Below, one piece after another: positions 508 through 43,037 of a stretch of DNA of 43,617 nucleotides. The stretch lies in NCBI GenBank assembly GCA_041661645.1, contig JBAZUA010000001.1, positions 1-43,617 of the forward strand. Reading direction: 5' to 3'. This DNA comes from Minisyncoccota bacterium (lineage in GTDB: Bacteria > Patescibacteriota > Minisyncoccia > Phycocordibacterales > UBA6065). The first letter of the stretch is position 1; the number at the start of each line of letters is the position of its first letter. The notes under the pieces are model-generated. The model was given only the letters and a program-made list of their open reading frames with translations, was not told where the DNA came from and did not search any database. The position numbers and the translations under genes were made by a program.

Positions 508-1326
508 ATGGATATAAAACCATTTAGGCAGTTTTTAGTTGCGCGTAAGGGGCTCATGCCGGTGACGGTGAAAGGGTATGCGGAGGCGGTCAAGAGAATT
601 ACCAGGGTCATCGGCGAGCACCCGTCGGATGAGACGATCGAATCGTTCGTCAACGTCCTCTATACGTCGGAGAAGTCGTATCACCACAAATTAAACACGG
701 TCCTCGCCCTCGAGAAGTATCTCGAGTTCATCGGGCGATCGACCAGGTTCGGCCGACAGCGAAAGCCGAAGCCGATTATCAAGAACACCCTCACGGAAGC
801 AGAGGTAACGAAGCTAATTTTTAACTGCAAGAACGAGCGAGAGAGGGCAATCGTCGCGCTCTTCGCCTACTCGGGCATCAGAAACCAGGAGCTCTGCAAT
901 CTCAGAGTGCGTGATTTCCTATGGTCGCAAAACGCGATCAGGGTCATTCAGGGAAAGTTCGCGAAGGACGGCATCTCGGAGATACCGCCAGAGTGCTCGA
1001 AGATCGTCCTGGACTATCTGAACCTATACCCGAGGACGGCCGATGACCACCTGTTCACAACGCTCAGGCGAAAGGCACAGATGGACACCAGGGACATGAG
1101 GAAGATCATCAAGGTCGTCGCCAAGAGGGCGAAGATGACCAAGCGCGTCTTTCCCCACCTCCTGCGCCACTCTCTCGCCGCTAACATGATCCTGCGCGGA
1201 GTCGACGTGATCTCCCTGAAGAATCAGCTCCGTCACGCATGGCTCGAGACAACGCTGCATTACGCCAATTCTATTGTGTTCGTCGAACGAAACCGTTATC
1301 AGAAGTTCGCGCCTAGCTACGTATAA
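508..1326 (+). CDS. Tyrosine recombinase (XerC/D-like, 272 aa)
   Basis: Catalytic motifs SGIRNQEL (R), GKFAK (K), HLLRH (H-x-x-R) and LRHAWLETTLHY (H...Y). Confidence 0.93.
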   Translation: MDIKPFRQFLVARKGLMPVTVKGYAEAVKRITRVIGEHPSDETIESFVNVLYTSEKSYHHKLNTVLALEKYLEFIGRSTRFGRQRKPKPIIKNTLTEAEVTKLIFNCKNERERAIVALFAYSGIRNQELCNLRVRDFLWSQNAIRVIQGKFAKDGISEIPPECSKIVLDYLNLYPRTADDHLFTTLRRKAQMDTRDMRKIIKVVAKRAKMTKRVFPHLLRHSLAANMILRGVDVISLKNQLRHAWLETTLHYANSIVFVERNRYQKFAPSYV

Positions 1327-1331
1327 AACAA

Positions 1332-1730
1332 ATGAACAAAACAGCAGGATACATAATCGCGGCGGGAGGCCTCTTATCGGCGAGCCTTTTCATGTTCGAC
1401 TTCTCCGGCGTCTCAGATGCCGAGCTGAAGCAGTACATCCAGGACTCGCTCGCCCGGGGGTGCCGGCCGATCATCGACGTCTGCACGTCTGACTGCGGCT
1501 CGGCCGAGCCTCAGCAGAACGTCACCGAGGAGTGCATCATCCCGAGCGGAGACATCATCAAGGTCTCATACACCAGGGCCCAGAACGGGTACGTGAAGCT
1601 CGCGCAGGACCTTGGCATCAGCGCCACGAACACGTCACCGCTCGAGCTCCCCGACAGGATCAGGGAGAAGCTCGAGGATAGCGGAGTCTCTGTCGAGCCT
1701 CAAAAGGAGTCTTTCGTCATCACGGACTAG
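1332..1730 (+). CDS. Hypothetical secreted or membrane-anchored protein
   Basis: Hydrophobic N-terminal segment and four Cys. It starts 5 nt after the integrase stop. Confidence 0.7.
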   Translation: MNKTAGYIIAAGGLLSASLFMFDFSGVSDAELKQYIQDSLARGCRPIIDVCTSDCGSAEPQQNVTEECIIPSGDIIKVSYTRAQNGYVKLAQDLGISATNTSPLELPDRIREKLEDSGVSVEPQKESFVITD

Positions 1731-1741
1731 CTCGTTGCGGT

Positions 1742-1769
1742 TCCCGGCCGATCGACAGATCGGCCGGGA
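1742..1769 (+). terminator. Strong 12-bp hairpin after ORF 1332-1730 (terminator-like, U-tract weak)
   Basis: TCCCGGCCGATC-GACA-GATCGGCCGGGA. Confidence 0.5.
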
Positions 1770-1794
1770 GACGGAACCAGTTATTTGAAAAACA

Positions 1795-1926
1795 GCGGTA
1801 GGGAGAGGGCCGGGGAAGTTCTTCGTCTGAGGATTCCATAGCTCGTATTCGTTCCAAACTCAATGCGTTGCAGGCCAGGCGCGACCACCCAATCCCCGGT
1901 GTCGCCCTCGGCCCTGTCCCTGTCGT
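1795..1926 (+). ncRNA. Candidate structured RNA (long closing stem with G-U pairs enclosing smaller hairpins)
   Basis: 1795-1814 GCGGTAGGGAGAGGGCCGGG pairs with 1906-1926 CCTCGGCCCTGTCCCTGTCGT, including several G-U wobbles. Confidence 0.4.
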
Positions 1927-1952
1927 TCATAAACCATCAATCCACATGATCC

Positions 1953-2183
1953 ATGTGCAAAGTCACGTGTCGGGCATGCGGCCGGCCCTTTGCGGTCGTC
2001 GGAATAGTTCGTCGCGGCGAAAGCTGCTTCTGTTCGGTAAAGTGTTTAAGAGACAACCTCGATGTCAGAGAGGAAACCCAAAACGCCGTGGCGATTGAGT
2101 TTCATCCGAAGGCTCCCGATGTCGTCCCGTTCCACCATCAAGCGTTCCACGCGCCGGGCTTGCTCGGCCTCGTGGGGCAATGA
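1953..2183 (+). CDS. Small zinc-finger protein (CxxC...CxCSxxC, TRASH/MYM-like)
   Basis: CRACG and CFCSVKC motifs. Confidence 0.6.
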   Translation: MCKVTCRACGRPFAVVGIVRRGESCFCSVKCLRDNLDVREETQNAVAIEFHPKAPDVVPFHHQAFHAPGLLGLVGQ

Positions 2184-2243
2184 AAGGAGGTGATCTTTCT
2201 CACCCGAGCCTAACCCGCTCGGTGATGGCGGTAAGTCCGCTTC

Positions 2244-2267
2244 AAGGAGACTACGGTCTCCTTTTTT
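2244..2267 (+). terminator. Intrinsic terminator
   Basis: AAGGAGAC-TACG-GTCTCCTT followed by a T-run. Confidence 0.8.
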
Positions 2268-2328
2268 GTCGGTAAAGTTTTGATAAATAAAAAGTAAAGA
2301 AAATATAAAGGCGATGTTGACTTTTTTC

Positions 2329-2356
2329 TTGACGTCGGCTCAATGCGGAGTAGTAT
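2329..2356 (+). promoter_or_regulatory. Sigma70-type promoter for the second integrase
   Basis: TTGACG-N16-TAGTAT. Confidence 0.6.
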
Positions 2357-2376
2357 CGGAGCCATTACAAGTTAAT

Positions 2377-2582
2377 AGTCCCGGAGCCCGAAAGGGCCCT
2401 GCCGCGAGGCATATTTCACCCCTGGGCCTATCTTGTGAGCATCGTACGCCTTCTGACGATTTTACTTTTAGTTTAATCTCACAGGCGTATAATGCCATTA
2501 GTAACTCCCTGAAAAGGGTTGTCTGCGAGCGATCGCCGGCGTTCAAAGTTACGGCACGGGCCCGGGGGTGAAATACCGGGCT
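2377..2582 (+). ncRNA. Candidate ~205-nt multibranched structured 5' leader or RNA upstream of integrase 2
   Basis: Nested stems 2377-2384/2576-2582, GCCC-GAAA-GGGC, 2411-2428/2559-2575 (~17 bp), 2432-2439/2478-2485, and a possible pseudoknot 2445-2451/2483-2489. Confidence 0.5.
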
Positions 2583-2591
2583 TTGTGTTAT

Positions 2592-3764
2592 ATGTTCATA
2601 AAGTTTCAAGAAAAGTACGAGGAATATTTCGAGTATCTGAGGAAGAGCGGAAAGACAGACAAGACGATCAGCGAGCACAGGAGGATGCTATGCGACCATT
2701 TCCCGGAGCGCATCAAGACGATGCGCCTTGCCAAGATGTCTAAATCAGACATCGCAGATCTGCTCGAGGCGGGAAGGCAGCATGGCGCCCATGGGCCGAC
2801 GCGACTCATCGTCGTGCTGAGGCGGTATTTCAACTTCATGCAGTCCGAGCTCGGCATGGAGATGCCCTTCGACTGGCGGGATGTCAGAGTCCCGATGTCG
2901 AAGCACAAGGAGCAGCCGGTATTCGAGGACCAGGAGATAGCCCTGCTCTTCAAGACCATGGAGGACCTCGAGCCCGGGAGCGTTCATGGCAAGCGGATGA
3001 ACTGGACGATGAGCACTCTCTTCGAGACGCTGTTCGCCACCGGCATGCGTATCCACGAGCCGCTCATGCTGAAGAGGTCGCAATTCCCGCAGATCAAGGC
3101 ATCGAAGGAGCTAGTGATCCTGGGCAAGGGAAGCAAGGAGCGAAAGATATTCTTCACCGATCGGGCGATTGAGAAGCTCGAGGAATACCTCGGCCGGAGG
3201 AATGACACGAGCGACTCCCTCTTCGTAAACTCCTGCGGGGAGCCCTTAATAATGGCGACGGCCCGAAGCTATTTCGAGCGCTTCAAGCGAAAGCTCCGCG
3301 AGCTCGGGCACGAGGAGATAGCACGGAAGCTGAAGAGCCATACGTTCAGGCGCACGCTATCGACGCACCTCTTCGAGAACGGTGCCGACATCAAGACCGT
3401 GCAGAAGATCCTCGGTCATGAGTCCGAGCGCACGACGATCAAGTGCTATATCCGGGCGAACGAGAAGAGGGCGAAGGTGATCCATACCGCCATCCTATCT
3501 AAGATACCTTTCGAGAAGCTCGCTACTCGGTACAAGGAAGTCCCCGACGGATCGGTTCACGTCCGCATCACGGAGAATGGCGGCCGGTGGATGCCGATGG
3601 ACGAGCAGGCATCAGAGGAGCTCAAGGGAATGGTGTCGATGATGAGGGATCAGTTCGCATCGCCGGACGAGAAGCGAATCCTGCAGAAGCTATTTAGCTC
3701 TCTCGGTCAGATATTGGAGCCAGTGACGCCTGTGAATCTCGAGCTTGAGAATGTTGGCGGGTAA
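2592..3764 (+). CDS. Tyrosine recombinase/integrase with a C-terminal extension
   Basis: Motifs TGMRIHE, GKGSKER, HTFRR and LGHESERTTIKCY. ATG 2592 is preferred over GTG 2568, which lies inside the RNA stem. Confidence 0.93.
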   Translation: MFIKFQEKYEEYFEYLRKSGKTDKTISEHRRMLCDHFPERIKTMRLAKMSKSDIADLLEAGRQHGAHGPTRLIVVLRRYFNFMQSELGMEMPFDWRDVRVPMSKHKEQPVFEDQEIALLFKTMEDLEPGSVHGKRMNWTMSTLFETLFATGMRIHEPLMLKRSQFPQIKASKELVILGKGSKERKIFFTDRAIEKLEEYLGRRNDTSDSLFVNSCGEPLIMATARSYFERFKRKLRELGHEEIARKLKSHTFRRTLSTHLFENGADIKTVQKILGHESERTTIKCYIRANEKRAKVIHTAILSKIPFEKLATRYKEVPDGSVHVRITENGGRWMPMDEQASEELKGMVSMMRDQFASPDEKRILQKLFSSLGQILEPVTPVNLELENVGG

Positions 3765-21703: not shown

Positions 21704-22528
21704 GTGATTAAACCAACTAGAGCTTTTATATCAATCTTAATCACGGAAGATTATCTACCCGGTCTTTTAGTCTTGAATGCTTCATTAAGGTCCGTAGAGA
21801 GTAAGTACTTACTGCACGTTTTATTGACTCAAAATATTTCTGAAGAAGCGATTAGTATACTGGACAAAAACTCAATTTTACACTCAATACTGCCCCAAGA
21901 GATTACCAACCCAACCAATGTAAATGTTCACCACAGGTGGTTTCCAACTTACTCCAAGTTGGCAATGTTTGGTCAAACACAGTATGAAAAAATAGTTTAT
22001 GTGGATGTCGATGTACTGGTACTTCGCAACATAGACGAGTTATTCGAATGTGCGCATATGAGTGCCACAAATGCCGGTAGCATGCTTCCGCGAAAAAAGA
22101 ATCTCAGACATTTAAATCTAAATAGCGGACTCATTGTAATCGAACCATCCGGTCTCTTGTTTAGTGACATGATTAATAAAGTAGGAAAAATAGAAAACCT
22201 AGAATCAGGCAGTGGGGACAAGCCAGTATATGGAAGCGATCAGGATTTTATAAACGCCTATTTTCCAGAATGGCCTAATCAAGAAGAGCTACATCTTGAT
22301 CATAAATATAATATGTTTCATTACCACCTTGATGAGTACAACAGGCTCTTTGGATATACGATTGAGGACGGTCTAAAACCGATAAGTGTTCTCCATTATG
22401 CAAGCCATCTTAAGCCCTGGAATATGAAAATAGACGATTTAGATAAAATCGCAAATGATCCAGATAGACACCTAGAATTAAGAGCGATCCAATTATGGAC
22501 AGAGCGATTTAATAGCATAAAGCCATGA
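21704..22528 (+). CDS. GT8 glycosyltransferase (glycogenin/galactinol-synthase-like)
   Basis: YSKL, IVYVDVD (DxD), NSGLIV, SDQDFIN and HY...KPW motifs. Confidence 0.9.
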   Translation: MIKPTRAFISILITEDYLPGLLVLNASLRSVESKYLLHVLLTQNISEEAISILDKNSILHSILPQEITNPTNVNVHHRWFPTYSKLAMFGQTQYEKIVYVDVDVLVLRNIDELFECAHMSATNAGSMLPRKKNLRHLNLNSGLIVIEPSGLLFSDMINKVGKIENLESGSGDKPVYGSDQDFINAYFPEWPNQEELHLDHKYNMFHYHLDEYNRLFGYTIEDGLKPISVLHYASHLKPWNMKIDDLDKIANDPDRHLELRAIQLWTERFNSIKP

Positions 22529-23994
22529 TTAATATACTGCTTATCGGCTGTGGATATCATGCCCGCAGAATATACGTTCCGCATCTCATGGAACAGAAGA
22601 ACGCAAGGCTCTCAGCCGTAGTCGACCTTGTTTCCCAAAGGCGAAAAATAGAGGGTTTTCTAAACGAAAAAGCAATTGTGGATATTGATTTTTATTACAC
22701 TGACAACAATCAGATATCTGACGATCTAAATCCTGAAGAAATCAAGAATTTAAATGATTTGGTAACAAAACAAAAGATAGATGCCGTTATTATTTCAACC
22801 GAACCTTTGGCACACTTCAAATATGCAAAATGGGCACTTGGGCACAATCTACACGTCCTCATGGACAAGCCAATCACCACGGAGCGTGACGTATCGACCA
22901 ACAAGGAGAAGGCGAGGAAACTGTACTCAGACTACACTAGTCTAAAAGAGCTCTATCAATCGAAATTAAAGAACAAAAGATTGGCTTTTATTCTTCAAGC
23001 ACAACGGAGACACCATGGTGGATTCTTGAAGACTAGGGATTTAATCCTTGAGGTCGCCAAAAAAACGAATTGTCCGATAACCTCCATTGAGTCATTCCAT
23101 AGTGATGGTCAGTGGAGATTTCCGAAAGAAATAATCGAGCAGACTTATCATCCGTACAATCAAGGATATGGAAAAATGTCCCATTCGGGCTACCACAGTC
23201 TCGATACGGCAGTATGGCTCGCCCAATCATCCATACTCGATCAAAGAAAGGAGTACGACAACTTCGAGCTCTATGCACAAGTCATGCGTCCAATAGATTT
23301 CTTTTCCCAACTAACACCAGAAGACTACGCAAAATTATTTCCTGGGATAGATAAAGGTGATCTGTTTTCAAGCAACCAATTAAAGGAGATGTTGGACGTG
23401 AAGGACACACATGGTGTGACCGGTGAGCTAGATGCCCATGCGCTCATCGCCCTTCGGCACGGAGAACGTACAATTACTAACATAGGCTCTCATGCTGTAC
23501 ACAACGGTTTCAGTCAGAGAAGTTGGATATCGGCAATCGGTCGTGACCTATACAAGGGCAATGGGCGTGTTCGACACGAGTCCTACATAATCGAGCAGGG
23601 TCCGTTTCAGTGTGTAATCGTTAACTCGTTCCAATCTCATGAGATATTCAAAAGCGACATCTCTCCGAATCTGGTGGGCGGGGAGTATCACTATGACATC
23701 CATGTTTTTAGAAACAGTACCCTGTTTCCAGAATATAAGGCTTACGAGCTCATTACGATGAGCGAGATAAATCAGTTGGTTGATCTTAAGTATTCTCGAG
23801 GACACCAAGAAGATGCACGTAGGAACTGTGTCGAGGAATTCATCTTGGCAATCAAGAATCAGACGCCTCCGCACCAACAAACCTCAAACTTTCTCGACCA
23901 TGAATTATCAACACACCTCCTCAGTGCCATATACGAGTCTATCGCTGACAGTGGTCAGTCTAGAGTAGTAAGAAGGAGCATCATAAATACATGA
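22525..23994 (+). CDS. Gfo/Idh/MocA family oxidoreductase
   Basis: IGCGYHA Rossmann motif, IISTEP..H, HVLMDKP and HSGYHSLD. Confidence 0.88.
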   Translation: MINILLIGCGYHARRIYVPHLMEQKNARLSAVVDLVSQRRKIEGFLNEKAIVDIDFYYTDNNQISDDLNPEEIKNLNDLVTKQKIDAVIISTEPLAHFKYAKWALGHNLHVLMDKPITTERDVSTNKEKARKLYSDYTSLKELYQSKLKNKRLAFILQAQRRHHGGFLKTRDLILEVAKKTNCPITSIESFHSDGQWRFPKEIIEQTYHPYNQGYGKMSHSGYHSLDTAVWLAQSSILDQRKEYDNFELYAQVMRPIDFFSQLTPEDYAKLFPGIDKGDLFSSNQLKEMLDVKDTHGVTGELDAHALIALRHGERTITNIGSHAVHNGFSQRSWISAIGRDLYKGNGRVRHESYIIEQGPFQCVIVNSFQSHEIFKSDISPNLVGGEYHYDIHVFRNSTLFPEYKAYELITMSEINQLVDLKYSRGHQEDARRNCVEEFILAIKNQTPPHQQTSNFLDHELSTHLLSAIYESIADSGQSRVVRRSIINT

Positions 23995-24971
23995 AAGAGA
24001 ACTATAAATCAAAGACTAATATTGTTATGACATGTTGGAACGCCCTCGATCACACTAAACTTACGTTACGGAGCATGTTCGATACTGTGCATCATCCGTT
24101 TTTTTTGACAATAGTAGATAACGGTTCCCGTGATGGAACCCAAGAATTCTTAAAAAATCTGGAGATTTCGTCGTGGTGTGAGAAAGTGGTAATGATTACC
24201 AATGAAATAAATAGGGGGATAATTGATGCAAACAACCAGGGTCAAGTGGTATCAAAGCAATATAGTTTAAAATATACATGCATCTGCAACAATGATTTAT
24301 ATTTTCAGGATAACTGGCTTTCGATTCTTGAAAATCACATGGAAAACGATCTCGACCTTGGGATCATTGGTACGCTTCGACCTGCTATTGACGTGGCTCA
24401 TCACATTCGTCATGAATCAAGCAAGGTTGTCGTGGATGGCACACCGAAAGGATATTCCATCACTGAGGAGTTGGAATATTTTCAAGGTCCGCACACTTTT
24501 ACCGAGGCGGCAAAAATGCTAATAGCCAAGAATAAGGGTGGGATCGCCATCTTGAGATGTCCACCAAACGCGGTAGTCACATGCTGCGCATTAGTCCGAA
24601 ATTCGGTATCTGATAAGATCGGCCTTTTCTCAGACACTCTCTTTGAGATGTATGGGAGCGAAGATATAGACTTCTCGTGGAGACTTCAAAAAGCTGGATA
24701 TCACTGTGGTGTTGCTAAAGATGTATACGTTCATCATTTCAGACATCGATCCATCAGCGCCTCAAACCTAGACAGAGAGAAATACCTTAGAGAAAATAAT
24801 ATAAAATTATTCAATAAATGGAAGTGTGACATATTTACTTTTTTGAAAAATGAAGAAAAGAAAGGCGTGGATATACGAAAAAATCTATCCTCAGAAGAGA
24901 ATCACGAATATTTTTTTCTGCGAAGAATACGGGAGAAGATAGATTTTATGATAGAATATCAAAATGAATAA
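23991..24971 (+). CDS. GT2 glycosyltransferase
   Basis: IVDNGSRDGT, CNND and SEDIDFSWR motifs. Confidence 0.9.
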   Translation: MKENYKSKTNIVMTCWNALDHTKLTLRSMFDTVHHPFFLTIVDNGSRDGTQEFLKNLEISSWCEKVVMITNEINRGIIDANNQGQVVSKQYSLKYTCICNNDLYFQDNWLSILENHMENDLDLGIIGTLRPAIDVAHHIRHESSKVVVDGTPKGYSITEELEYFQGPHTFTEAAKMLIAKNKGGIAILRCPPNAVVTCCALVRNSVSDKIGLFSDTLFEMYGSEDIDFSWRLQKAGYHCGVAKDVYVHHFRHRSISASNLDREKYLRENNIKLFNKWKCDIFTFLKNEEKKGVDIRKNLSSEENHEYFFLRRIREKIDFMIEYQNE

Positions 24972-25506
24972 TCTGATCACAGAAAAGGTGGTAATTAATA
25001 ATCCCATCGGTAATTTATACAGGAAAAGGCACGTACTGGTTTTGGTTATCGACAAAAACTCAAACTTTATTCTCGGAAAAAAGAAAGACTTTTACCCGGA
25101 CCACGTCGCCCGTATGTTGGGTGGCGGCATTAAAGAGAATGAGGACCCGAAGATTGCTGCAAAAAGAGAGATTGAGGAGGAACTCCTTGCTAGTATTCCA
25201 ATTGAATCTTTTAGAGAGCTTTGCTCAGTTATAACAAGCGCGGCCACAAGCGAGGGTGATATGGAGATGCAGACTTGGATTTATTCAGTTCGATTACCCG
25301 ATTCGGCAGACATAAAGCCAAGCGACGATATTACTGGGATCCAGATATTTACTCAAAAACAGTACGAAAGCCTCATAAAAGACATAATGGATCTTTCGGG
25401 AGAATTTGTAACTGATAAGTTTTCATTTCTTTGGGCTGATTGGGGCAAAATATACGGTCCGATCCATAAGTATGCCCTCGATAGTTTCAGGAAGATGGGG
25501 AACTAA
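24964..25506 (+). CDS. NUDIX hydrolase
   Basis: GGGIKENEDPKIAAKREIEEE Nudix box. Confidence 0.9.
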   Translation: MNNLITEKVVINNPIGNLYRKRHVLVLVIDKNSNFILGKKKDFYPDHVARMLGGGIKENEDPKIAAKREIEEELLASIPIESFRELCSVITSAATSEGDMEMQTWIYSVRLPDSADIKPSDDITGIQIFTQKQYESLIKDIMDLSGEFVTDKFSFLWADWGKIYGPIHKYALDSFRKMGN

Positions 25507-25510
25507 CCAC

Positions 25511-26131
25511 ATGGAACACGAGAAAGAGTATTCAAAAATTTGTGATGATCTCAAGGGATTGGTTGAAGAGACGGGGGAACCTTTAGAGGGAAATTGTGTG
25601 TATCGGCACCTATCGTTTGATCAGTGGGATGTTCTGCTGAACAAAAGAGTAAATTATCAGAAAGCGGTCAAGGGAAGAAAATTCATATGCGAAATTGGAT
25701 TCAATGCAGGACACAGTGTTCTTGCTATGATTTTGGCGAATCCCAATGCGCATTATGTTCTATTTGACCTTGGAGCTCACTCTTATGCTCGACCCTGCTT
25801 CGATTACTTAAAAAAAATTTTTCCACAGACGACATTAGAGATAGTCTGGGGAGATTCTCGTGAGACACTACCCGCTTATCGGAAAGAACATCCAAGGGTG
25901 ATGTTCGATTTAGTGCATATAGACGGAGGTCATAGAAGCGAGATTTATGTGGCAGATTGGAAAAACTCGCTCGACATCACTCATCCTGGTAGCTTTATTA
26001 TCTTTGATGACACAGATAGTCTTAAAATAAACACTTTTCTTGATGGGGAGATCAAGAAACAAATCGTGGATGAGGCAGCTGGCTTTCTCAAAACATTCGG
26101 TTACGAACATCGCGTCTTGGAAAAGAAATAA
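25511..26131 (+). CDS. Class I SAM-dependent methyltransferase (Methyltransf_24-like)
   Basis: EIGFNAGHS, GDS, DLVHIDGGH and IIFDD motifs. Confidence 0.88.
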   Translation: MEHEKEYSKICDDLKGLVEETGEPLEGNCVYRHLSFDQWDVLLNKRVNYQKAVKGRKFICEIGFNAGHSVLAMILANPNAHYVLFDLGAHSYARPCFDYLKKIFPQTTLEIVWGDSRETLPAYRKEHPRVMFDLVHIDGGHRSEIYVADWKNSLDITHPGSFIIFDDTDSLKINTFLDGEIKKQIVDEAAGFLKTFGYEHRVLEKK

Positions 26132-26141
26132 ATCCCTAAAA

Positions 26142-26972
26142 TTACATAACGTCTCCAATCCCTTCTTCTAGAGCCACTTTTGTTTTCCAATTAAGAAGAT
26201 TTTCACTTTCGGCATTTTTTTGAATGATATGCTTTATGTCCCCCCTCCTCTCGGACACATATTTGATGGGCGCCTTGAATAGGCTGGCGACATAATTCAG
26301 GCTGACATTCCTTCCGGTGCAGAGATCAATGTTTCCCACGACATCGCTATCCATGGCCAGGATGTTTGCTCGCACAATGTCTGAGACGTGCGTGAAATCC
26401 CTGGTTTGCTCTCCGTCTCCTGTTATTTCAATATACCCATTTTCTTTAATAGATTTCTTAATTGAAGCAAAACAATTGGGACCAATACCGTCTTCTCTTT
26501 GTCTCGACCCATAAACATTAGAGTTCCTCAAGCAGATGGTCGAGATACCGTAAAGACTTGTATACACTTTTGAGATTTCTTCCATGGCTATTTTGCTTGC
26601 TTTATACGGAGTGTCAGCCGCATACACGATATTGCTTGAGGTTAAAATCACACGCTTGACGTTATTTTTAAAGGCGGCCTCTAGAACATTTAGAGAACCC
26701 AAAACATTTGTCTCGTAACAAAGAACGGGGTCATCGATGCACCAGACTGTTCGGGGTATAGCAGCCATATGAAAGACGTAGTCAATATCTTTAAAGTGAC
26801 CAAATATACTTTTTAGAGACCTTATATCAGCATCGTAATATGTGGCATCCGGATTCACGTTATTTCCAGAAAGCCCATTGTCTATTACGAATACTTCGAA
26901 ATTTTCTACCAAACTGTCGACGAGATGAGAACCGATAAACCCCTTACCGCCAGTTACTAATACTTTTTTCAT
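26142..26972 (-). CDS. NAD-dependent epimerase/dehydratase (extended SDR)
   Basis: VTGGKGFIGSHL, YKASK (YxxxK), NVYG and GDGEQTRDFTHVSD motifs. Confidence 0.93.
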   Translation of the reverse strand: MKKVLVTGGKGFIGSHLVDSLVENFEVFVIDNGLSGNNVNPDATYYDADIRSLKSIFGHFKDIDYVFHMAAIPRTVWCIDDPVLCYETNVLGSLNVLEAAFKNNVKRVILTSSNIVYAADTPYKASKIAMEEISKVYTSLYGISTICLRNSNVYGSRQREDGIGPNCFASIKKSIKENGYIEITGDGEQTRDFTHVSDIVRANILAMDSDVVGNIDLCTGRNVSLNYVASLFKAPIKYVSERRGDIKHIIQKNAESENLLNWKTKVALEEGIGDVM

Positions 26973-27078
26973 ATGGATATGACTATAACATTTTTTAGAA
27001 AATACCATTATTTGACAAAATATGTATTTAATGATATTACTGTTTTAGAATTTAACCCAAACCAAAAAGGAGTTATCT

Positions 27079-27624
27079 ATGTTCATAGTATTAGAAGGTA
27101 TAGACGGTAGTGGTAAATCTAGCCTGGCCCCGATGATTGCGGCAAAATGTAACGGCACCACTTATGCTACACCTCCTGAGAAATACAGAAGGTTACGTAA
27201 GCAAATAGATACGGATTCGAGTCCTCAAAAGCATTACGAATTTTATCGTGACGCGGTGACAGAGGCATCTTCGGAGATTAGCAAACTGCTATCTTCGGGC
27301 GAAACGGTGGTATGTGATAGATACTGGTTTAGCACACTAGTCTACCACAGGGCAGGGAAGATGGTCCTAGATGGATCAGACTTTTCTCACCTTACTCAGC
27401 CTGATTTAACAGTTCTGCTTTTAGTGGGGCCGGAGGAGCAGGTCCGCCGTTATCGGAAGCGTGGAGTGGAAGGCGGCAACAATGTCGACGGTTTCCAGGT
27501 AGAGATTAACAATCTGTACCGGACAGCTCTCATTGAATCAAAATTGCCATTCATTGTCATAGACACAGATCATTATTCCCTAGAACAAATTACAGACATG
27601 ATTGTTGCCGCTCTGCCGAAATAA
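27079..27624 (+). CDS. Thymidylate-kinase-fold nucleotide kinase, CMPK2-like
   Basis: EGIDGSGKS P-loop, TPP..Y..LRK, DRYWFST and PDLTVLL. Confidence 0.85.
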   Translation: MFIVLEGIDGSGKSSLAPMIAAKCNGTTYATPPEKYRRLRKQIDTDSSPQKHYEFYRDAVTEASSEISKLLSSGETVVCDRYWFSTLVYHRAGKMVLDGSDFSHLTQPDLTVLLLVGPEEQVRRYRKRGVEGGNNVDGFQVEINNLYRTALIESKLPFIVIDTDHYSLEQITDMIVAALPK

Positions 27625-27626
27625 TC

Positions 27627-27656
27627 ACAGTCCGATTCCCGAATCGGACTGTTTTT
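27627..27656 (+). terminator. Intrinsic terminator
   Basis: ACAGTCCGATTC-CC-GAATCGGACTGT plus a T-run. Confidence 0.75.
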
Positions 27657-27706
27657 AATTAGCAGAAATATCATTTGCTAACAAGATTGGATGACGGTAC
27701 CATAAC

Positions 27707-28270
27707 ATGAACAAGATGAAAATCATCCTCGGCTCTACAAACAATCGAAAGATTGAGGTCGTCAAAAAGGCCCTCAAGACCGTCACGGGCAATTTTCCGG
27801 AAGTATTCGGCTTCAAGGCCGATTCCAAGGTGCCAGAAACCCCGTACGATAAACAGACCTTCGATGGGGCTCGAAATCGGGCGGTGCAGGCTCGCGACGA
27901 GGCTGGTGATGCTGATATGTATATTGGCCTCGAAAGCGGCCTGATCGAGCGATACGGTAATGTATACGAAGAGGCCTGGTGCTATATTCTGACAAAGGAC
28001 GGCAGAGAGTATTCTGGCTATTCGAGCGGCCTGCGCCTGCCAGACTATGTCCTGAGCGAGATGAAGCGCCTCAACAAGGAGCACTGCGATGTCATGACCA
28101 TACTCGAGGAAAGACACGGCAATCTGCCGAACGACACTTGGGGAAGTTATTCGTCTGGTATGATAACCCGCGAGAATAGCCTCGAGGAGGCCCTTCGCAA
28201 CGTCCTGATCCAGATATACGCGCCGGAGCAAAGCTTTTACAAGCAGAAACAAACTTCACATGAACTATAA
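27707..28270 (+). CDS. yjjX: Inosine/xanthosine triphosphatase (DUF84/YjjX-like)
   Basis: GSTNNRK, SKVPETP, GARNRA and IGLESGL motifs. Confidence 0.85.
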   Translation: MNKMKIILGSTNNRKIEVVKKALKTVTGNFPEVFGFKADSKVPETPYDKQTFDGARNRAVQARDEAGDADMYIGLESGLIERYGNVYEEAWCYILTKDGREYSGYSSGLRLPDYVLSEMKRLNKEHCDVMTILEERHGNLPNDTWGSYSSGMITRENSLEEALRNVLIQIYAPEQSFYKQKQTSHEL

Positions 28271-29543: not shown

Positions 29544-29571
29544 ACCATATAGCAAAAACGGGTTTTGTCAA
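29544..29571 (-). promoter_or_regulatory. Sigma70 promoter of the GNAT leader
   Basis: TTGACA-N16-TATGGT on the minus strand. Confidence 0.65.
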
Positions 29572-30239
29572 TGTCTGTCGAAATGAGAACGGTGGTCCAA
29601 ATCCTCTATGTGCGCCCTGTCGTTCCACGTCAGGATAATCCATGGGTGGTCGAATTTCGAACTATCCAGCTTTTCGAAGACGGAGATGCCAGTATTGTCT
29701 GTGGTCAGGGTGAAATACAAATTATGGTATTCATGCGAGGTGAGACCTTCTCCCATGATGATGCAGGCGGCAATCATCTTGAGGAATATGCCATGTGTCA
29801 CAATGAGAATATGGCCCTCTTTTCGTGACTCGATATATTTTATGGCATCAAGGGCGCGCGTTTTCATGTCCTCGAAATTCTCCTCATCGGAACGTCTCCA
29901 ATCCTTCTCATGGAAGTTGTTCTGGATGAGCTTTTCAATGGCGATTACCCCGGGATCGTCGTTTCTTTTGCCGGAGATGACAGACGGTCGTCGTCGCTCG
30001 ACCAGAAGGTCAGAGCGTTCTATTGGTTTTCCTAGTGTCTCATTGATTATGTCCGCGGTTTCCATGGCGCGGGAGTAGGTGCTCGATATGACTACTTCAA
30101 TGGGAAGACGGGTCAACCGTTCGGATACGGCCCTGGCCTGTTCTCTGCCTTTATCCGAAAGAACGGTATCGGACCCCTGTCGAAACGCCCCGGCATTCCC
30201 CTCGCTCTCGCCATGACGGACAAAGTAGATTCTTTTCAT
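29568..30239 (-). CDS. Histidine phosphatase (phosphoglycerate mutase family)
   Basis: RHGES, LSDKGREQA, SSTYSRAMET and IVTHG motifs. Confidence 0.92.
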   Translation of the reverse strand: MKRIYFVRHGESEGNAGAFRQGSDTVLSDKGREQARAVSERLTRLPIEVVISSTYSRAMETADIINETLGKPIERSDLLVERRRPSVISGKRNDDPGVIAIEKLIQNNFHEKDWRRSDEENFEDMKTRALDAIKYIESRKEGHILIVTHGIFLKMIAACIIMGEGLTSHEYHNLYFTLTTDNTGISVFEKLDSSKFDHPWIILTWNDRAHIEDLDHRSHFDRH

Positions 30240-35617: not shown

Positions 35618-36931
35618 ATGCCAAAAATCGAACCACGCACGCTCAAGGGCTTTCGGGACTTCCTCCCGGAGCAGCAGATAACCCGACAGAAGTTCATGGG
35701 CATAATTCGCGCGTCATACGAGACCTTCGGCTTCGAGCCCCTCGAGACCCCGGCCCTCGAATACGCCGAGATCCTCACGGGCAAGTACGGCGACGAGGGC
35801 GACAAGCTCATGTATCGATTCAAAGACAACGGCGATCGAGACGTCGCCTTGCGCTATGACCTGACGATTCCGCTCGCCCGCGTCGCCGCCCAGTACGAGA
35901 ACGACCTCAGGAAGCCGTGGAAGAGGTATCAGATCTCGCCCGTATGGCGTGCCGAGAACAGCCAGAAGGGTAGGTATCGCGAGTTCTACCAGTGCGACGC
36001 CGACATCGTGGGCAGCACGAGCCCGCTTGCCGACGCCGAGATCCTCGCCCTGAGCGCAGGAACCCTGGTCAGGCTCGGCATACCCGCGAGCAACTTCGTG
36101 GTACGCGTCAATTCCCGCGAGATCATTACCGCCTTCTACGAGACCCTCGGCTTCACGGCCGAACAGCAGGTCTCGGCCATGCGCGCCGTCGACAAGATAG
36201 ACAAGATCGGCCCCGAGGGAGTGACCGAGGAGCTGGTCAGATTCGGCTTCCTCGCCGACGACGTCATGGCCATCATCAACTTTGCCTCGATCAGGATCGC
36301 CAAACTCGACGATGTGCCGGGTGCCATCGCCACGTTCCCCGAAGTGGCGGGAGCGCTCGGAAAGCTGTCCGACATCATCCGCTCGGCGCTTCTTCTCGCA
36401 CCGACGACGTCATTCATCATCGACTTCTCCATCGCCCGAGGCCTCGACTACTACACCGGCATCATTTTCGAGACCAATCTCCTGAAGGCTCCTCAATTTG
36501 GCGCGATCTGCGCGGGCGGACGATATGACAATCTCATCGGCACGTTCTCGAACAGGCCGATTCCCGCCGTGGGCGCATCGATAGGTCTCGACCGCCTCCT
36601 GGCGGCCCTCGAGGAGCTCGGCATAACAAAGGCCGAGAAGACCACGGCACAGGCCCTCATCGTCAATTTTGACGAGTCCCTGGCCCCTGAATACCTCAAG
36701 ATGGCTTCCGAGCTCAGGAATGCCGGCGTGAACACCATCCTGTATTTCGACACCGCGGATCTGAAGAAGCAACTTTCGTACGCGAGCGACAAGGGCATCA
36801 AGTTCGCCCTCATGTATGGCACGAACGAGGCAAAGGAGGGCATCGTGGTGATAAAGGATCTGGAGAAGGGAACGCAGGAGAAGGTTAAGATCGACGAGGT
36901 CGTTAAAACCCTGTGCCAACCCAGAAACTAG
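35618..36931 (+). CDS. hisS: Histidine--tRNA ligase
   Basis: LKGFRDFLP, LRYDLT, GRYREFYQCDADI, RGLDYYTG and GGRYD motifs. Confidence 0.98.
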   Translation: MPKIEPRTLKGFRDFLPEQQITRQKFMGIIRASYETFGFEPLETPALEYAEILTGKYGDEGDKLMYRFKDNGDRDVALRYDLTIPLARVAAQYENDLRKPWKRYQISPVWRAENSQKGRYREFYQCDADIVGSTSPLADAEILALSAGTLVRLGIPASNFVVRVNSREIITAFYETLGFTAEQQVSAMRAVDKIDKIGPEGVTEELVRFGFLADDVMAIINFASIRIAKLDDVPGAIATFPEVAGALGKLSDIIRSALLLAPTTSFIIDFSIARGLDYYTGIIFETNLLKAPQFGAICAGGRYDNLIGTFSNRPIPAVGASIGLDRLLAALEELGITKAEKTTAQALIVNFDESLAPEYLKMASELRNAGVNTILYFDTADLKKQLSYASDKGIKFALMYGTNEAKEGIVVIKDLEKGTQEKVKIDEVVKTLCQPRN

Positions 36932-40764: not shown

Positions 40765-40837
40765 GCGAATTGACGTTTGCCCGAGGGAGATGTAGTGTTT
40801 GGGAAGATTCTCAACCACAACCACACGACACAACGTC

Positions 40838-41599
40838 ATGCACATTCCATACGTCGGCATCACCGACTTCACCAAGTTTGAGCAGGTCGAGCATATGCTC
40901 CGAGTGTTCAAGGCCCACATTCACCCCACATCGACGCGCAAGCTTCATGTCGGGGTGATGATGAGCTACAAGACCCTTCATGGCCTCGAGACCAAATGGT
41001 CAAAGGCCTTCCCGCCCAAGGAGACGGTCGCGAGCATCTTCGCCTCAGGCGAGACCTACAACTGCCTCCACTATGCGGATTACGACAAGGACCCCGACTT
41101 CGACAGGAGTCTGGATCAGGCCGTCTCATACGGTGGATTCAATCTGAACGCGGTTCAGCTCGACATGGTCTGGCCGGAACCGGACGGCATAGCCTATGCC
41201 GTCCCCGGACACATCGAGGTCATCCTCCAGGTGGGCAAGAACGCCATCGAACAGGCCGACAATAGTCCGGACACGGTCGTCACGATGCTCGGGAATTATG
41301 AGGGCCTCATCGACAGGGTCCTTCTCGACAAGAGCATGGGACGGGGACTCGGTATGGATGCCATCGGCCTTCTGCCCTTCGCAAGGGCGATACGGAAGAG
41401 GTTTCCCACCCTCGGGCTGGTAGCGGCAGGAGGCCTCGGCCCCGATACCATGCACCTCGTCGAGCCTCTCGTCAGGGAATTCCCCGACCTGAGCATCGAC
41501 GCCCAGGGAAGGCTTCGCCCCAGCGGCAACGCGCTTGACCCAATCGATTGGGAGATGGCGGGAAGTTATCTCTGCAAGGCATTTAATTTCCTGGAATAA
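40838..41599 (+). CDS. TrpF/PRA-isomerase-like TIM-barrel protein
   Basis: VLLDKSMGRG, AAGGLGP and LSIDAQGRLR phosphate-binding-barrel motifs. It is divergent from canonical TrpF. Confidence 0.65.
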   Translation: MHIPYVGITDFTKFEQVEHMLRVFKAHIHPTSTRKLHVGVMMSYKTLHGLETKWSKAFPPKETVASIFASGETYNCLHYADYDKDPDFDRSLDQAVSYGGFNLNAVQLDMVWPEPDGIAYAVPGHIEVILQVGKNAIEQADNSPDTVVTMLGNYEGLIDRVLLDKSMGRGLGMDAIGLLPFARAIRKRFPTLGLVAAGGLGPDTMHLVEPLVREFPDLSIDAQGRLRPSGNALDPIDWEMAGSYLCKAFNFLE

Positions 41600-41614
41600 A
41601 TGCCAGTCTCGGTC

Positions 41615-41653
41615 AGACCCCTCTGCGACATCAATCGCAGGCGGGTCTTTTTT
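41615..41653 (+). terminator. Intrinsic terminator
   Basis: AGACCC..CTGCGA-CATCAA-TCGCAG..GGGTCT plus a T-run. Confidence 0.7.
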
Positions 41654-41662
41654 ATTGAAAGC

Positions 41663-41691
41663 TTGATTATCTGGCGCATAACAGGTACATT
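41663..41691 (+). promoter_or_regulatory. Sigma70 promoter of the serA leader
   Basis: TTGATT-N17-TACATT. Confidence 0.65.
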
Positions 41692-41698
41692 TAAAGAT

Positions 41699-41761
41699 AT
41701 GAAAGCAGTCGAAAAACGAACGACCTCCTCCTCCAGCTCAAGAATTCACTTCAAGGGCTAG
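41699..41761 (+). CDS. Serine-rich leader peptide L4 (20 aa)
   Basis: MKAVEKRTTSSSSSRIHFKG, with Ser codons TCC TCC TCC AGC TCA. Confidence 0.8.
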   Translation: MKAVEKRTTSSSSSRIHFKG

Positions 41762-41797
41762 TCTTTGCTATCACTTCTCACGACAACGATTGATATC

Positions 41798-41830
41798 AGA
41801 AACGAGCCCTCGAAGGGCTCGTTTCTCTTT
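41798..41830 (+). terminator. Attenuator terminator upstream of serA
   Basis: AGAAACGAGCCC-TCGAA-GGGCTCGTTTCT-CTTT. Confidence 0.85.
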
Positions 41831-41867
41831 GCATGGTGCAAGGCAGAAAAGTTCCTTGTAAAAATAT

Positions 41868-43037
41868 ATGAACCGTATCCTAGTCCTAAACAACGTATCG
41901 AAAAAAGGCCTCGCGCTCTTTGGCGATGCTCATCGGGTGGGTCAAGACACGACCGACCCTGAGGGAATAATAGTGAGAAGCGCCAAGGTGAATACCGACC
42001 AGTATCCACACCTTGTTGCCGTCGCGCGTGCCGGCGCGGGAGTGAACAACGTTAGCGTGGCAAGGGCAACTGAAAAGGGAGTCTGTGTTTTCAACACTCC
42101 GGGGGCGAATGCCAATGCTGTCGCGGAGCTTGTCTTCATCATGTTGGGCAACTTCGCCCGACATGTCGATGAGGCACTCCGCTTCGTGCGAAGCCTTGAT
42201 GGCGACGACCTCTCGATAACAGACAGGGTTGAGGCTGAAAAATCAACCTTCGCGGGCTTTGAGCTCGTCGGAAAAACCCTTGGTGTCATTGGCCTTGGAA
42301 AAATCGGCGTGCTCGTAGCAAACGCCGGCATCAAGCGCAGCATGAGGGTTATTGGCCACGACGCATTTCCGACATTCGGAAACATGCACCAGCTCGACTC
42401 AAGGGTGGAAGTCGTCCGGAAGATGGAAGGATTACTATCCGAAGCGGACGTGCTCAGCGTACATGTCCCGCTTTCCGAAAAGACGAAACACCTCATCGGG
42501 GTAAGTCAGGTCAACTCGATGAAAGACGAGGTCATCCTCATGAACTATGCGAGGGAAGGTATCTATGACGATGCCGCGGTAATTGACGGGCTCCGTGTGG
42601 GCAAGGTCAGGGCATTTATCACGGACTTTCCGACAAGGGCACTGCTCGAAGAGAAGGGAGTTATCTGCACGCCCCATCTGGGGGCAAGCACGGCTGAGTC
42701 TGAGGAAAATTGCGCCGTAATGGCAGCGAAGCAACTCAAAAATTATCTGGAATACGGAGTTGTCACAAACTCAGTCAACTTCCCGACAATCGAGACGTTT
42801 CCAGCCCAAGGAATCCGCGCCCGCCTGGCGATAGTGAACAAGGACATGCCGGGCATGATCGCCGTAATAGCGGGAATGCTTGGCGATGCGGGGATAAATA
42901 TTCAAGCCCTAACCAATGAGAGCGCTGGAGGAATTGGATATAACCTAGTAGACCTCGGGATTGATGTCGGTGACGAGCTGGTTTCAAAAATCAGCGCGGC
43001 CCCGAACATACTCAGGGTGCGCGTGTTGAGGTTCTGA
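41868..43037 (+). CDS. serA: D-3-phosphoglycerate dehydrogenase with C-terminal ACT domain
   Basis: ARAGAGVNN, NTPGANANAVAEL, GVIGLGKIG, MNYAR, TPHLGAST and ACT motif NKDMPGMI. Confidence 0.92.
   Translation: MNRILVLNNVSKKGLALFGDAHRVGQDTTDPEGIIVRSAKVNTDQYPHLVAVARAGAGVNNVSVARATEKGVCVFNTPGANANAVAELVFIMLGNFARHVDEALRFVRSLDGDDLSITDRVEAEKSTFAGFELVGKTLGVIGLGKIGVLVANAGIKRSMRVIGHDAFPTFGNMHQLDSRVEVVRKMEGLLSEADVLSVHVPLSEKTKHLIGVSQVNSMKDEVILMNYAREGIYDDAAVIDGLRVGKVRAFITDFPTRALLEEKGVICTPHLGASTAESEENCAVMAAKQLKNYLEYGVVTNSVNFPTIETFPAQGIRARLAIVNKDMPGMIAVIAGMLGDAGINIQALTNESAGGIGYNLVDLGIDVGDELVSKISAAPNILRVRVLRF

Follow-up and report, generated by a model that had tools for sequence, protein, structure and literature searches.

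Does the short serine-rich open reading frame (ORF) that precedes a serA-like gene in a Patescibacteria genome serve as a sensor of serine supply? The locus lies near the 3' end of a 43,617-nt stretch of contig JBAZUA010000001.1 (the window), where an initial annotation had read a Ser-tRNA-sensing attenuator between a promoter and serA. Comparison with relatives bore this reading out: eight lineages conserve the ORF with its frame and Ser run, the position of its stop codon and the alternative RNA helices. Judged from this sequence comparison, the element is probably a ribosome-mediated leader-peptide transcription attenuator that makes the transcription of serA depend on how much charged seryl-tRNA is available.

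A serine-codon leader conserved upstream of serA

The comparative set consisted of the window and seven lineages (L175, L163, L165, L164, L083, L179 and L169) whose SerA proteins are 68-75% identical to window SerA. A search for poly-Ser ORFs upstream of serA homologues, a check put forward in the initial annotation, recovered one in all seven of these further lineages, with the Ser run conserved. When scored with a covariance model, the whole arrangement reached 125-155 bits in these lineages and was found nowhere else in ~1 Mb of sequence. The encoded leader peptides were MTVMQKFVTSSSSSGTHI (L175), MHRIAKFNTSSSGSRKHI (L163), MQTIAKFTTSSSSSRNYI (L165), MKATVKCNNSSSGSSKHI (L164), MYRIANFNTSSSGSRNYI (L083), MKAKTKNINSSSSSRHIV (L179) and MLKVIAKIGSSSSCSRTIV (L169). 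Where an upstream neighbour gene was visible, it was unlike between the leader loci, and the element is therefore linked to serA and travels with it.

In the window, the gene upstream of the leader ends at its own intrinsic terminator, of which a scanner match spans the inner part only, and the leader and serA thus form a separate transcription unit. Both boxes of the proposed promoter, which is sigma-70-like, were found at the positions originally given (Table 1). A -10 hexamer (TATACT, TATATT or TATAAT) stands 6-7 nt 5' of the leader ATG in all seven relatives, which together with TACATT of the window makes eight of eight, and a TTGnnn hexamer, read by eye from the alignment, lies 16-17 nt 5' of the -10 box in seven of the eight (six of the seven relatives; L083 has TTTCCT). 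The leader ORF itself has 18-20 codons in all eight lineages, and no Shine-Dalgarno sequence was found 5' of its ATG in the window or in the relatives. Because of this constant geometry between the -10 box and the ATG and the lack of a Shine-Dalgarno sequence, the ORF is predicted to be leaderless, with the transcript 5' end at the ATG. Start-codon contexts of the remaining genes in the window, surveyed for signs of leaderless starts, gave no information, as the ORF starts are not known reliably.

The 20-aa peptide with five Ser codons was likewise located as first described, its leaderless start being deduced from the promoter geometry. The codons of the window ORF are ATG AAA GCA GTC GAA AAA CGA ACG ACC TCC TCC TCC AGC TCA AGA ATT CAC TTC AAG GGC TAG, and the ORF appears in the ORF list as the 3' part of ORF 41600..41761. 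This longer in-frame ORF (41600-41761, 53 aa) was rejected because it spans the terminator of the upstream gene and the promoter, and because the counterpart region is unrelated in the relatives. Ser runs of at least five residues occur only three times across the window in all six frames.

To read the Ser run as codons, we aligned it in frame across the eight lineages. The results revealed the pattern TCC TCN TCN NGC TCN, in which the first and second bases of the four TCN codons are invariant and C, G, A and T all occur at the third bases, while the eight codons before the run have a mean identity of only 58%. A 3-periodic pattern such as this is expected from selection on codon identity, and a pairing or protein-binding constraint would not give rise to it. 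The consecutive cluster comprises five Ser codons in the window, and every relative has four to five Ser codons. The NGC codon is AGC (Ser) in four lineages, GGC (Gly) in three and TGC (Cys) in one; with Gly or Cys replacing Ser in four of eight lineages, the conserved sensor therefore appears to consist of UCN codons only. The earlier claim that the run draws on both TCN and AGY tRNAs did not survive this comparison. TCC accounts for 19% of the Ser codons in window genes and is neither rare nor dominant, and a rare-codon argument is therefore unavailable. In Bacillus subtilis, UCN but not AGY codons slow ribosomes under serine starvation (PMC3862929). The sinR case described there is similar in that serine limitation is sensed through slow UCN decoding, and every invariant Ser codon of the serA leader is likewise UCN; it differs in that the codons belong to sinR itself, the regulated gene, and reduce the output of its own protein, with neither a leader peptide nor an RNA switch.

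Alternative helices and the position of the ribosome

We assessed the stability of each helix by its folding energy and by a z score against shuffled sequence (200 shuffles for the antiterminator). Helix 1:2, the protector or pause hairpin, pairs AGCTC (41735-41739) with GGGCT (41755-41759) at -6.1 kcal/mol (z -1.5); this stem, named in the initial annotation, is part of the minimum free energy (MFE) structure. The arms of the antiterminator (2:3) are 25 nt long and 80% complementary, giving -21.5 kcal/mol (z -4.3), and 0/200 shuffles were as good. The pairing AGGGCT/AGCCCT (41754-41759/41805-41810) that had been named as the antiterminator is present, but it is just the core of a helix of 23-25 bp and not a 6-bp helix. 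The terminator (3:4) reaches -21.1 kcal/mol (z -6.1), is followed by the U-rich stretch TTTCTCTTT at 41822-41830, and its stem ends 41 nt 5' of the serA ATG; it stands before serA as proposed, with 13 bp rather than 12. The antiterminator and the terminator are thus about equally stable, each far better than shuffled sequence, and since the antiterminator shares 13 nt with the 5' arm of the terminator, the two are mutually exclusive. The full window leader folds as helix 1:2 plus the terminator, and the same leader cut before region 4 folds as the antiterminator.

Between the leader stop codon and the terminator end, the relatives are 74-87% identical to the window (mean 83% over all pairs), compared with 67-70% in serA DNA (mean 71%) and ~49% in the upstream flank. 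Since most bases of regions 2-3 must pair in two alternative helices, strong conservation of these regions is to be expected. In eight of eight lineages the leader stop codon lies inside region 2, and in eight of eight the distal stem is followed by a U-rich tail in the form of an intrinsic terminator. The loop of the antiterminator varies among lineages in sequence and in length (~11-17 nt). Helix 1:2 of the relatives is an 8-bp GCTCTAG/CTAGGGT helix, paired in 92% of alignment cells. A further helix, P0, would form between codons 3-6 of the leader and the 3' half of region 2 (e.g., AUAGCAAAG with CUUUGCUAU). It was significant in L163, L165, L169 and L083, the last of which shows a compensatory change from G-C to U-A, and not in the window or L164, and we treated it as a probable accessory, lineage-specific feature; its pairing may explain the 'IAKF' peptide motif.

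Pairing was compared with two controls, 500 shuffles and sliding of the partner strand. Overall, the helices were kept in 86-97% of cells, compared with 25-55% after sliding. For the antiterminator (23 pairs), 86% of cells were paired versus 29-47% when slid, and 0/500 shuffles reached the observed covariation score or paired fraction; two of its pairs showed compensatory changes, U-A to C-G in L179 and C-G to U-A in L169 (U-G in L175). For the terminator together with helix 1:2, 95% of cells were paired versus 25-54% when slid, with one compensatory pair in the terminator (C-G to U-A in L163). This covariation appears supportive of the helices and falls short of statistical proof.

We then refolded each leader while masking a 28-nt ribosome footprint (A-site codon -15 to +12) in the window and six relatives, with L179 left out. 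When no ribosome was placed, helix 1:2 plus the terminator formed in five of the six, and L175 already gave the antiterminator. With the A site at Ser2, the antiterminator was the MFE structure in 6/6 relatives; at Ser3, it was so in 5/6, with the terminator in L163. With the A site at the stop codon, the terminator was the MFE structure in 5/6 relatives, and L175 formed a weak substitute hairpin only. A ribosome on the window leader with Ser1-Ser3 in its A site reaches ~41738-41745 and leaves 41749-41773 free, and one at the TAG covers ~41744-41772. By this modelled geometry and thermodynamics, the position of the ribosome appears to select the fold.

Under the attenuation mechanism that we propose, transcription would start with the A of the leader ATG or 1 nt earlier, as the promoter geometry suggests, and the leading ribosome would translate the 20-codon ORF of a leaderless mRNA. 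When Ser-tRNA(UCN) is plentiful, the ribosome would reach the TAG and cover most of region 2, whereupon region 3 would pair with region 4 to form the terminator (41798-41826) and transcription would stop before serA. When Ser-tRNA is scarce, the ribosome would stall at TCC TCC TCC (41726-41734) and melt helix 1:2, and the freed region 2 would pair with region 3 before region 4 is made, allowing RNA polymerase to read through into serA. Without translation, helices 1:2 and 3:4 would both form and transcription would terminate. Stalling on Ser starvation, like the regulatory outcome, is a prediction of this model.

Table 1. Coordinates of the leader, its RNA elements and the adjoining features (window positions unless a locus is given)
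Feature	Position	Strand	Details or basis
Intrinsic terminator of the upstream gene (40799-41599)	41615-41654	+	Inverted repeat 41615-41628 / 41635-41648, then T6 run
-35 box TTGATT	41663-41668	+	17-nt spacer to the -10 box
-10 box TACATT	41686-41691	+	Ends 7 nt 5' of the leader ATG
Predicted leader-peptide ORF, MKAVEKRTTSSSSSRIHFKG	41699-41761, including stop	+	ATG 41699-41701, 20 sense codons, TAG 41759-41761
Putative regulatory Ser codons TCC TCC TCC AGC TCA	41726-41740	+	Five consecutive Ser codons
Helix 1:2 (protector or pause hairpin), AGCTC/GGGCT plus inner GAA/TTC pairing	41735-41759	+	MFE structure
Region 2, antiterminator 5' arm	41749-41773	+	Inverted repeat; holds the leader stop 41759-41761
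Region 3, antiterminator 3' arm	41791-41815	+	Inverted repeat; overlaps the terminator 5' arm
Intrinsic terminator	41798-41830	+	Perfect 13-bp stem 41798-41810 / 41814-41826, loop CGA, U-rich tail
Small conserved hairpin TTGCA-TGG-TGCAA, distal 5' untranslated region	41829-41841	+	Alignment
serA-like D-3-phosphoglycerate dehydrogenase, C-terminal ACT-like region	41868-43037	+	389 aa; regulated gene
ORF-less copies in relatives	L172 2339-2463; L173 593-717; L174 1-77		Regions 2-4 intact

Counterevidence, sibling leaders and rival explanations

Several observations weigh against this attenuator. The window promoter matches the consensus at 8/12 positions and was missed by a consensus scanner whose threshold was 9/12, and it is solely the distance of the ATG from the -10 box that suggests a leaderless start. 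Helix 1:2 is weak by itself in the window, and the U-tract of the terminator is interrupted, so that a generic scanner missed it. Unlike in the relatives when Ser codons were in the A site, the 13-bp terminator of the window stayed the equilibrium MFE structure in every masked case, Ser codons included; the switch must therefore be kinetic, with helix 2:3 forming before region 4. A kinetic order is also assumed for the trp attenuator. For the set of the terminator plus helix 1:2, 37-66 of 500 shuffles matched the observed values, making this control not decisive, and the covariation as a whole comes from eight closely similar sequences with one to two compensatory pairs per helix. The host is an uncultured Patescibacteria metagenome-assembled genome. 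Finally, not every close relative has a complete leader. L166, L176 and L177 (SerA 67-70% identical), which form one sub-clade, are without it, and L172-L174 have lost the leader ORF although regions 2-4 are still present and score 74 bits against the model. In L172-L174, a deletion has replaced the leader ORF and the promoter by the terminal (3') part of a HAD-IB phosphatase gene, and under the attenuation model this variant should show either constitutive readthrough or decay.

The rival that survives best, although we consider it unlikely, is an attenuator whose signal is the availability of ribosomes or the general capacity for translation, in which any slow leading ribosome would give readthrough and the Ser run would be incidental. 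The geometry would answer any stall upstream of region 2, and one 'Ser' position is Gly or Cys in half of the lineages. However, the four UCN codons persist in eight of eight lineages despite wobble and neighbour drift, the regulated gene encodes the first enzyme of serine synthesis, and the codons of two sibling leaders, Phe at pheA and Leu at leuA, point to an amino-acid-specific design.

The first of these leaders precedes pheA (prephenate dehydratase; L081 4265-5149, minus strand), which lies convergent on the same contig, ~600 nt past the window end. The pheA leader (L081 5321-5202, minus strand) has TATAGT, a 6-nt interval, a GTG-started ORF, VIHATSFFGFFQNSEKPKVN, with four Phe in five codons, and a 19-bp terminator with a T5 run, which suggests an attenuator for Phe built on the leaderless plan of the serA leader. 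The second, at leuA (L164 3697-3841), has TACTAT, a 7-nt interval, an ATG-started ORF rich in Leu, Ile and Val (MKANKHNLLALFSIRTKVEILLVRNY) and an 11-bp terminator, after which come a TTTTGCAnnnnGCAAG hairpin and a GTTCTTTAGAAAGG ribosome-binding context, as after the serA leader. With a Phe leader at pheA and a Leu leader at leuA, the lineage therefore appears to use the leaderless design for three amino acids.

An RNA switch controlled by a ligand or a protein (a riboswitch or the target of an RNA-binding protein), with a fortuitous short ORF, is improbable. Such a switch would suit the higher conservation of regions 2-4 than of serA and the survival of these regions in L172-L174 without the ORF; yet dual pairing already predicts the conservation of regions 2-3, and the only unpaired segment between the helices, the antiterminator loop, varies and leaves no room for a conserved aptamer. 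We found no Rfam 15 match at the gathering threshold anywhere in the window, leader families, T-box and riboswitches included, and at E values up to 10 the interval 41500-42000 gave only chance-level matches to unrelated families. A switch of this kind also leaves unexplained the 3-periodic Ser codons, the spacing of the ATG from the promoter and the position of the stop codon.

We give very little credence to a functional micro-protein, whose hairpin would be its terminator or a stabilising 5' structure and which would involve no amino-acid sensing. The kept ORF length and the partly kept sequence (IAKF and SRxxI motifs) fit such a product, but the N-terminal half is poorly conserved at the nucleotide level (the 58% noted above), the conserved pieces coincide with pairing partners of region 2 in several lineages, and a plain terminator would have no need of the conserved competing helix over the stop codon. 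Least probable of all is a translational action that exposes or hides the serA ribosome-binding site (RBS), for which a mycobacterial precedent in poly-Cys short ORFs (10.1101/834739) and the imperfect U-tract of the window speak, but the serA start region is unpaired with regions 1-4 in the predicted folds, giving no sign of RBS unmasking, and the intrinsic-terminator form is kept in all eight lineages.

Known attenuators, distribution and the regulated gene

The proposed leader-peptide attenuator of serA shares its plan with the enterobacterial trp, his, pheA, thr, leu and ilv attenuators, namely a short ORF with a run of end-product codons and the helices 1:2, 2:3 (antiterminator) and 3:4 (terminator), among which the ribosome position picks the fold. 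It differs from them in its Ser codons, its lack of a Shine-Dalgarno sequence, its predicted start at the 5' end and its Patescibacteria host, and it has no sequence or covariance-model similarity to the Rfam Trp, His, Phe, Thr and Leu leaders. The set of known specificities is wider than the initial annotation had listed, as Cys has been shown in mycobacteria and Ala and Met have been predicted in Streptomyces.

Leaderless leader peptides have precedents. They are known or predicted in Streptomyces lividans, where they cover Trp, Leu, Ile, Thr, Ala and Met (PMC8079986), and among the 14 predicted leaders of Deinococcus deserti (PMC4007540). A further leader-peptide attenuator, 'LVVI', belongs to Mycobacterium tuberculosis ilvB1 (PMC13236596). 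The S. lividans trpL, leuL, alaL and metL and the D. deserti leader ORFs start at the transcript 5' end as predicted here, S. lividans trpL1 and leuL2 and M. tuberculosis ilvB1 have a terminator or antiterminator downstream, and the leaders of all three organisms control amino-acid or tRNA-synthetase genes; they differ in phylum and in amino acid, with no Ser example found in the texts consulted. The mycobacterial poly-Cys short ORFs likewise hold a run of codons for one amino acid; they are leaderless, use ribosome pausing as the signal and control metabolic genes of that amino acid, all of which is predicted for the serA leader. They act on translation by unmasking a downstream RBS (10.1101/834739), whereas at serA an intrinsic terminator competes with an antiterminator. 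Control of serA by tRNA-Ser charging through a choice of terminator or antiterminator is known from the T-box of Paenibacillus polymyxa serA (PMC8002221). A T-box, however, binds uncharged tRNA directly and does not need translation, and no T-box match was found at the serA leader. A full-text literature search returned no Ser leader-peptide attenuator, Table S9 of the D. deserti study (PMC4007540) lying outside its coverage, so that an earlier case there is possible; the same kind of search gave no report of leader peptides from Patescibacteria or the Candidate Phyla Radiation (CPR). As far as can be determined, the mechanism is classical, and the serine specificity and the phylum are new.

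The serA leader appears to be confined to one clade of Patescibacteria. Neither a Ser-run ORF nor a covariance-model match was found upstream of serA at 80 loci of GTDB representatives and 79 of 80 JGI metagenome loci (the 80th is L083), all with SerA at most 61% identical and drawn from Fibrobacterota, Desulfobulbia, Firmicutes and others. In a rough neighbour-joining tree, the leader-bearing proteins formed the crown of the Patescibacteria SerA clade. L166, L176 and L177 have a promoter and a ~45-nt 5' untranslated region (UTR), in which only the distal hairpin and, for ribosome binding, the GTTCYTTGAAAGG region are kept. The distribution is compatible with a single gain, in which the leader would have been added upstream of an older UTR, or with a single loss. 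Between the terminator and the serA start of the window (41829-41859), a TTGCA-NNN-TGCAA hairpin and a AGTTCCTTG(A)AA motif are present, and both are kept in loci with or without the leader. No recognisable Shine-Dalgarno sequence was found for window serA.

On balance, we lean towards the broader view that some Patescibacteria (CPR, Parcubacteria/Paceibacteria-type) run leaderless attenuators, sensing Ser at serA, Phe at pheA and Leu at leuA, before the few biosynthesis genes that they retain, and that the serA element is the first serine-specific and UCN-only example. If so, these reduced-genome organisms would make Ser, Phe and Leu and regulate them via tRNA charging, and transcription and translation would be coupled on leaderless mRNAs in CPR. 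Serine would join the few amino acids for which sensing by leader-peptide attenuation is known or predicted, a notable addition given its six codons and several isoacceptors, of which only UCN is conserved here. The leaders thereby offer comparative evidence for classical attenuation in CPR, and the covariance model, together with the pattern of a leaderless upstream ORF plus a terminator, provides a means to mine CPR genomes for amino-acid sensors.

The 17 best PDB matches to window SerA are all D-3-phosphoglycerate dehydrogenases, and its residues 48-387 align to 74-408 of Escherichia coli SerA (1psd), through the ACT domain. The best NCBIfam families were TIGR01327 (240 bits, cut-off 454) and NF008759 (177, cut-off 404), both below the equivalog level, and none of serC, serB and glyA was found within the window. 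Directly upstream of serA, L169 and L172 carry a HAD-IB phosphatase with weak SerB similarity. The suggestion that this SerA works in the serine supply of a lineage thought to be largely auxotrophic is consequently reasonable but indirect: the matches to dehydrogenases, ACT region included, speak for it, and the sub-cut-off scores and the absence of the three genes from the window do not. The Ser-codon attenuator would add independent regulatory evidence that serA acts in serine synthesis; its regulatory logic would mark an otherwise ambiguous 2-hydroxyacid dehydrogenase as a serine-pathway enzyme and bears on the extent of auxotrophy. The closest SerA homologues (63-75% identity) include proteins named from Minisyncoccia and Taylorbacteria, and the next tier (~60% identity) is Fibrobacterota, not other CPR or Firmicutes, a kinship that may reflect horizontal transfer of serA. 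Elsewhere in the window, a gene of the histidine phosphatase superfamily (branch 1, phosphoglycerate-mutase family) lies at 29568-30239 on the minus strand. Some members of this family are phosphoserine phosphatases, and the gene is a possible serB substitute.

Two further searches gave matches that were rejected. A model match at L164 1948-2115 (26 bits, E 0.006) consists of serA 3' coding sequence and its own terminator and is not a second leader; the coding sequence contains ATGAAAGCAA and GATTGATATCAG, similar to segments of the leader, and the resemblance is probably due to chance. Viral contigs scanned with the region-2 core pattern gave five matches, all at chance level, with a best model score of 13.9 bits.

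As to the source of the window, the named relatives of its histidyl-tRNA synthetase gene (35618-36931) are solely Parcubacteria, Paceibacterota, Taylorbacteria and 'Patescibacteria group'. Together with the named SerA homologues, they place the window in CPR/Patescibacteria, in agreement with the largely auxotrophic lineage of the initial annotation. Positions 22000-28000 have a GC content of 0.40-0.42, compared with 0.50-0.58 in the rest of the window, and encode glycosyltransferases of families 8 and 2, a GFO/IDH/MocA oxidoreductase and an NAD-dependent epimerase; an acquired island for cell-surface sugars is the probable explanation. Two genes for tyrosine recombinases of the phage integrase family occupy positions 508-3764, close to the 5' end of the window.

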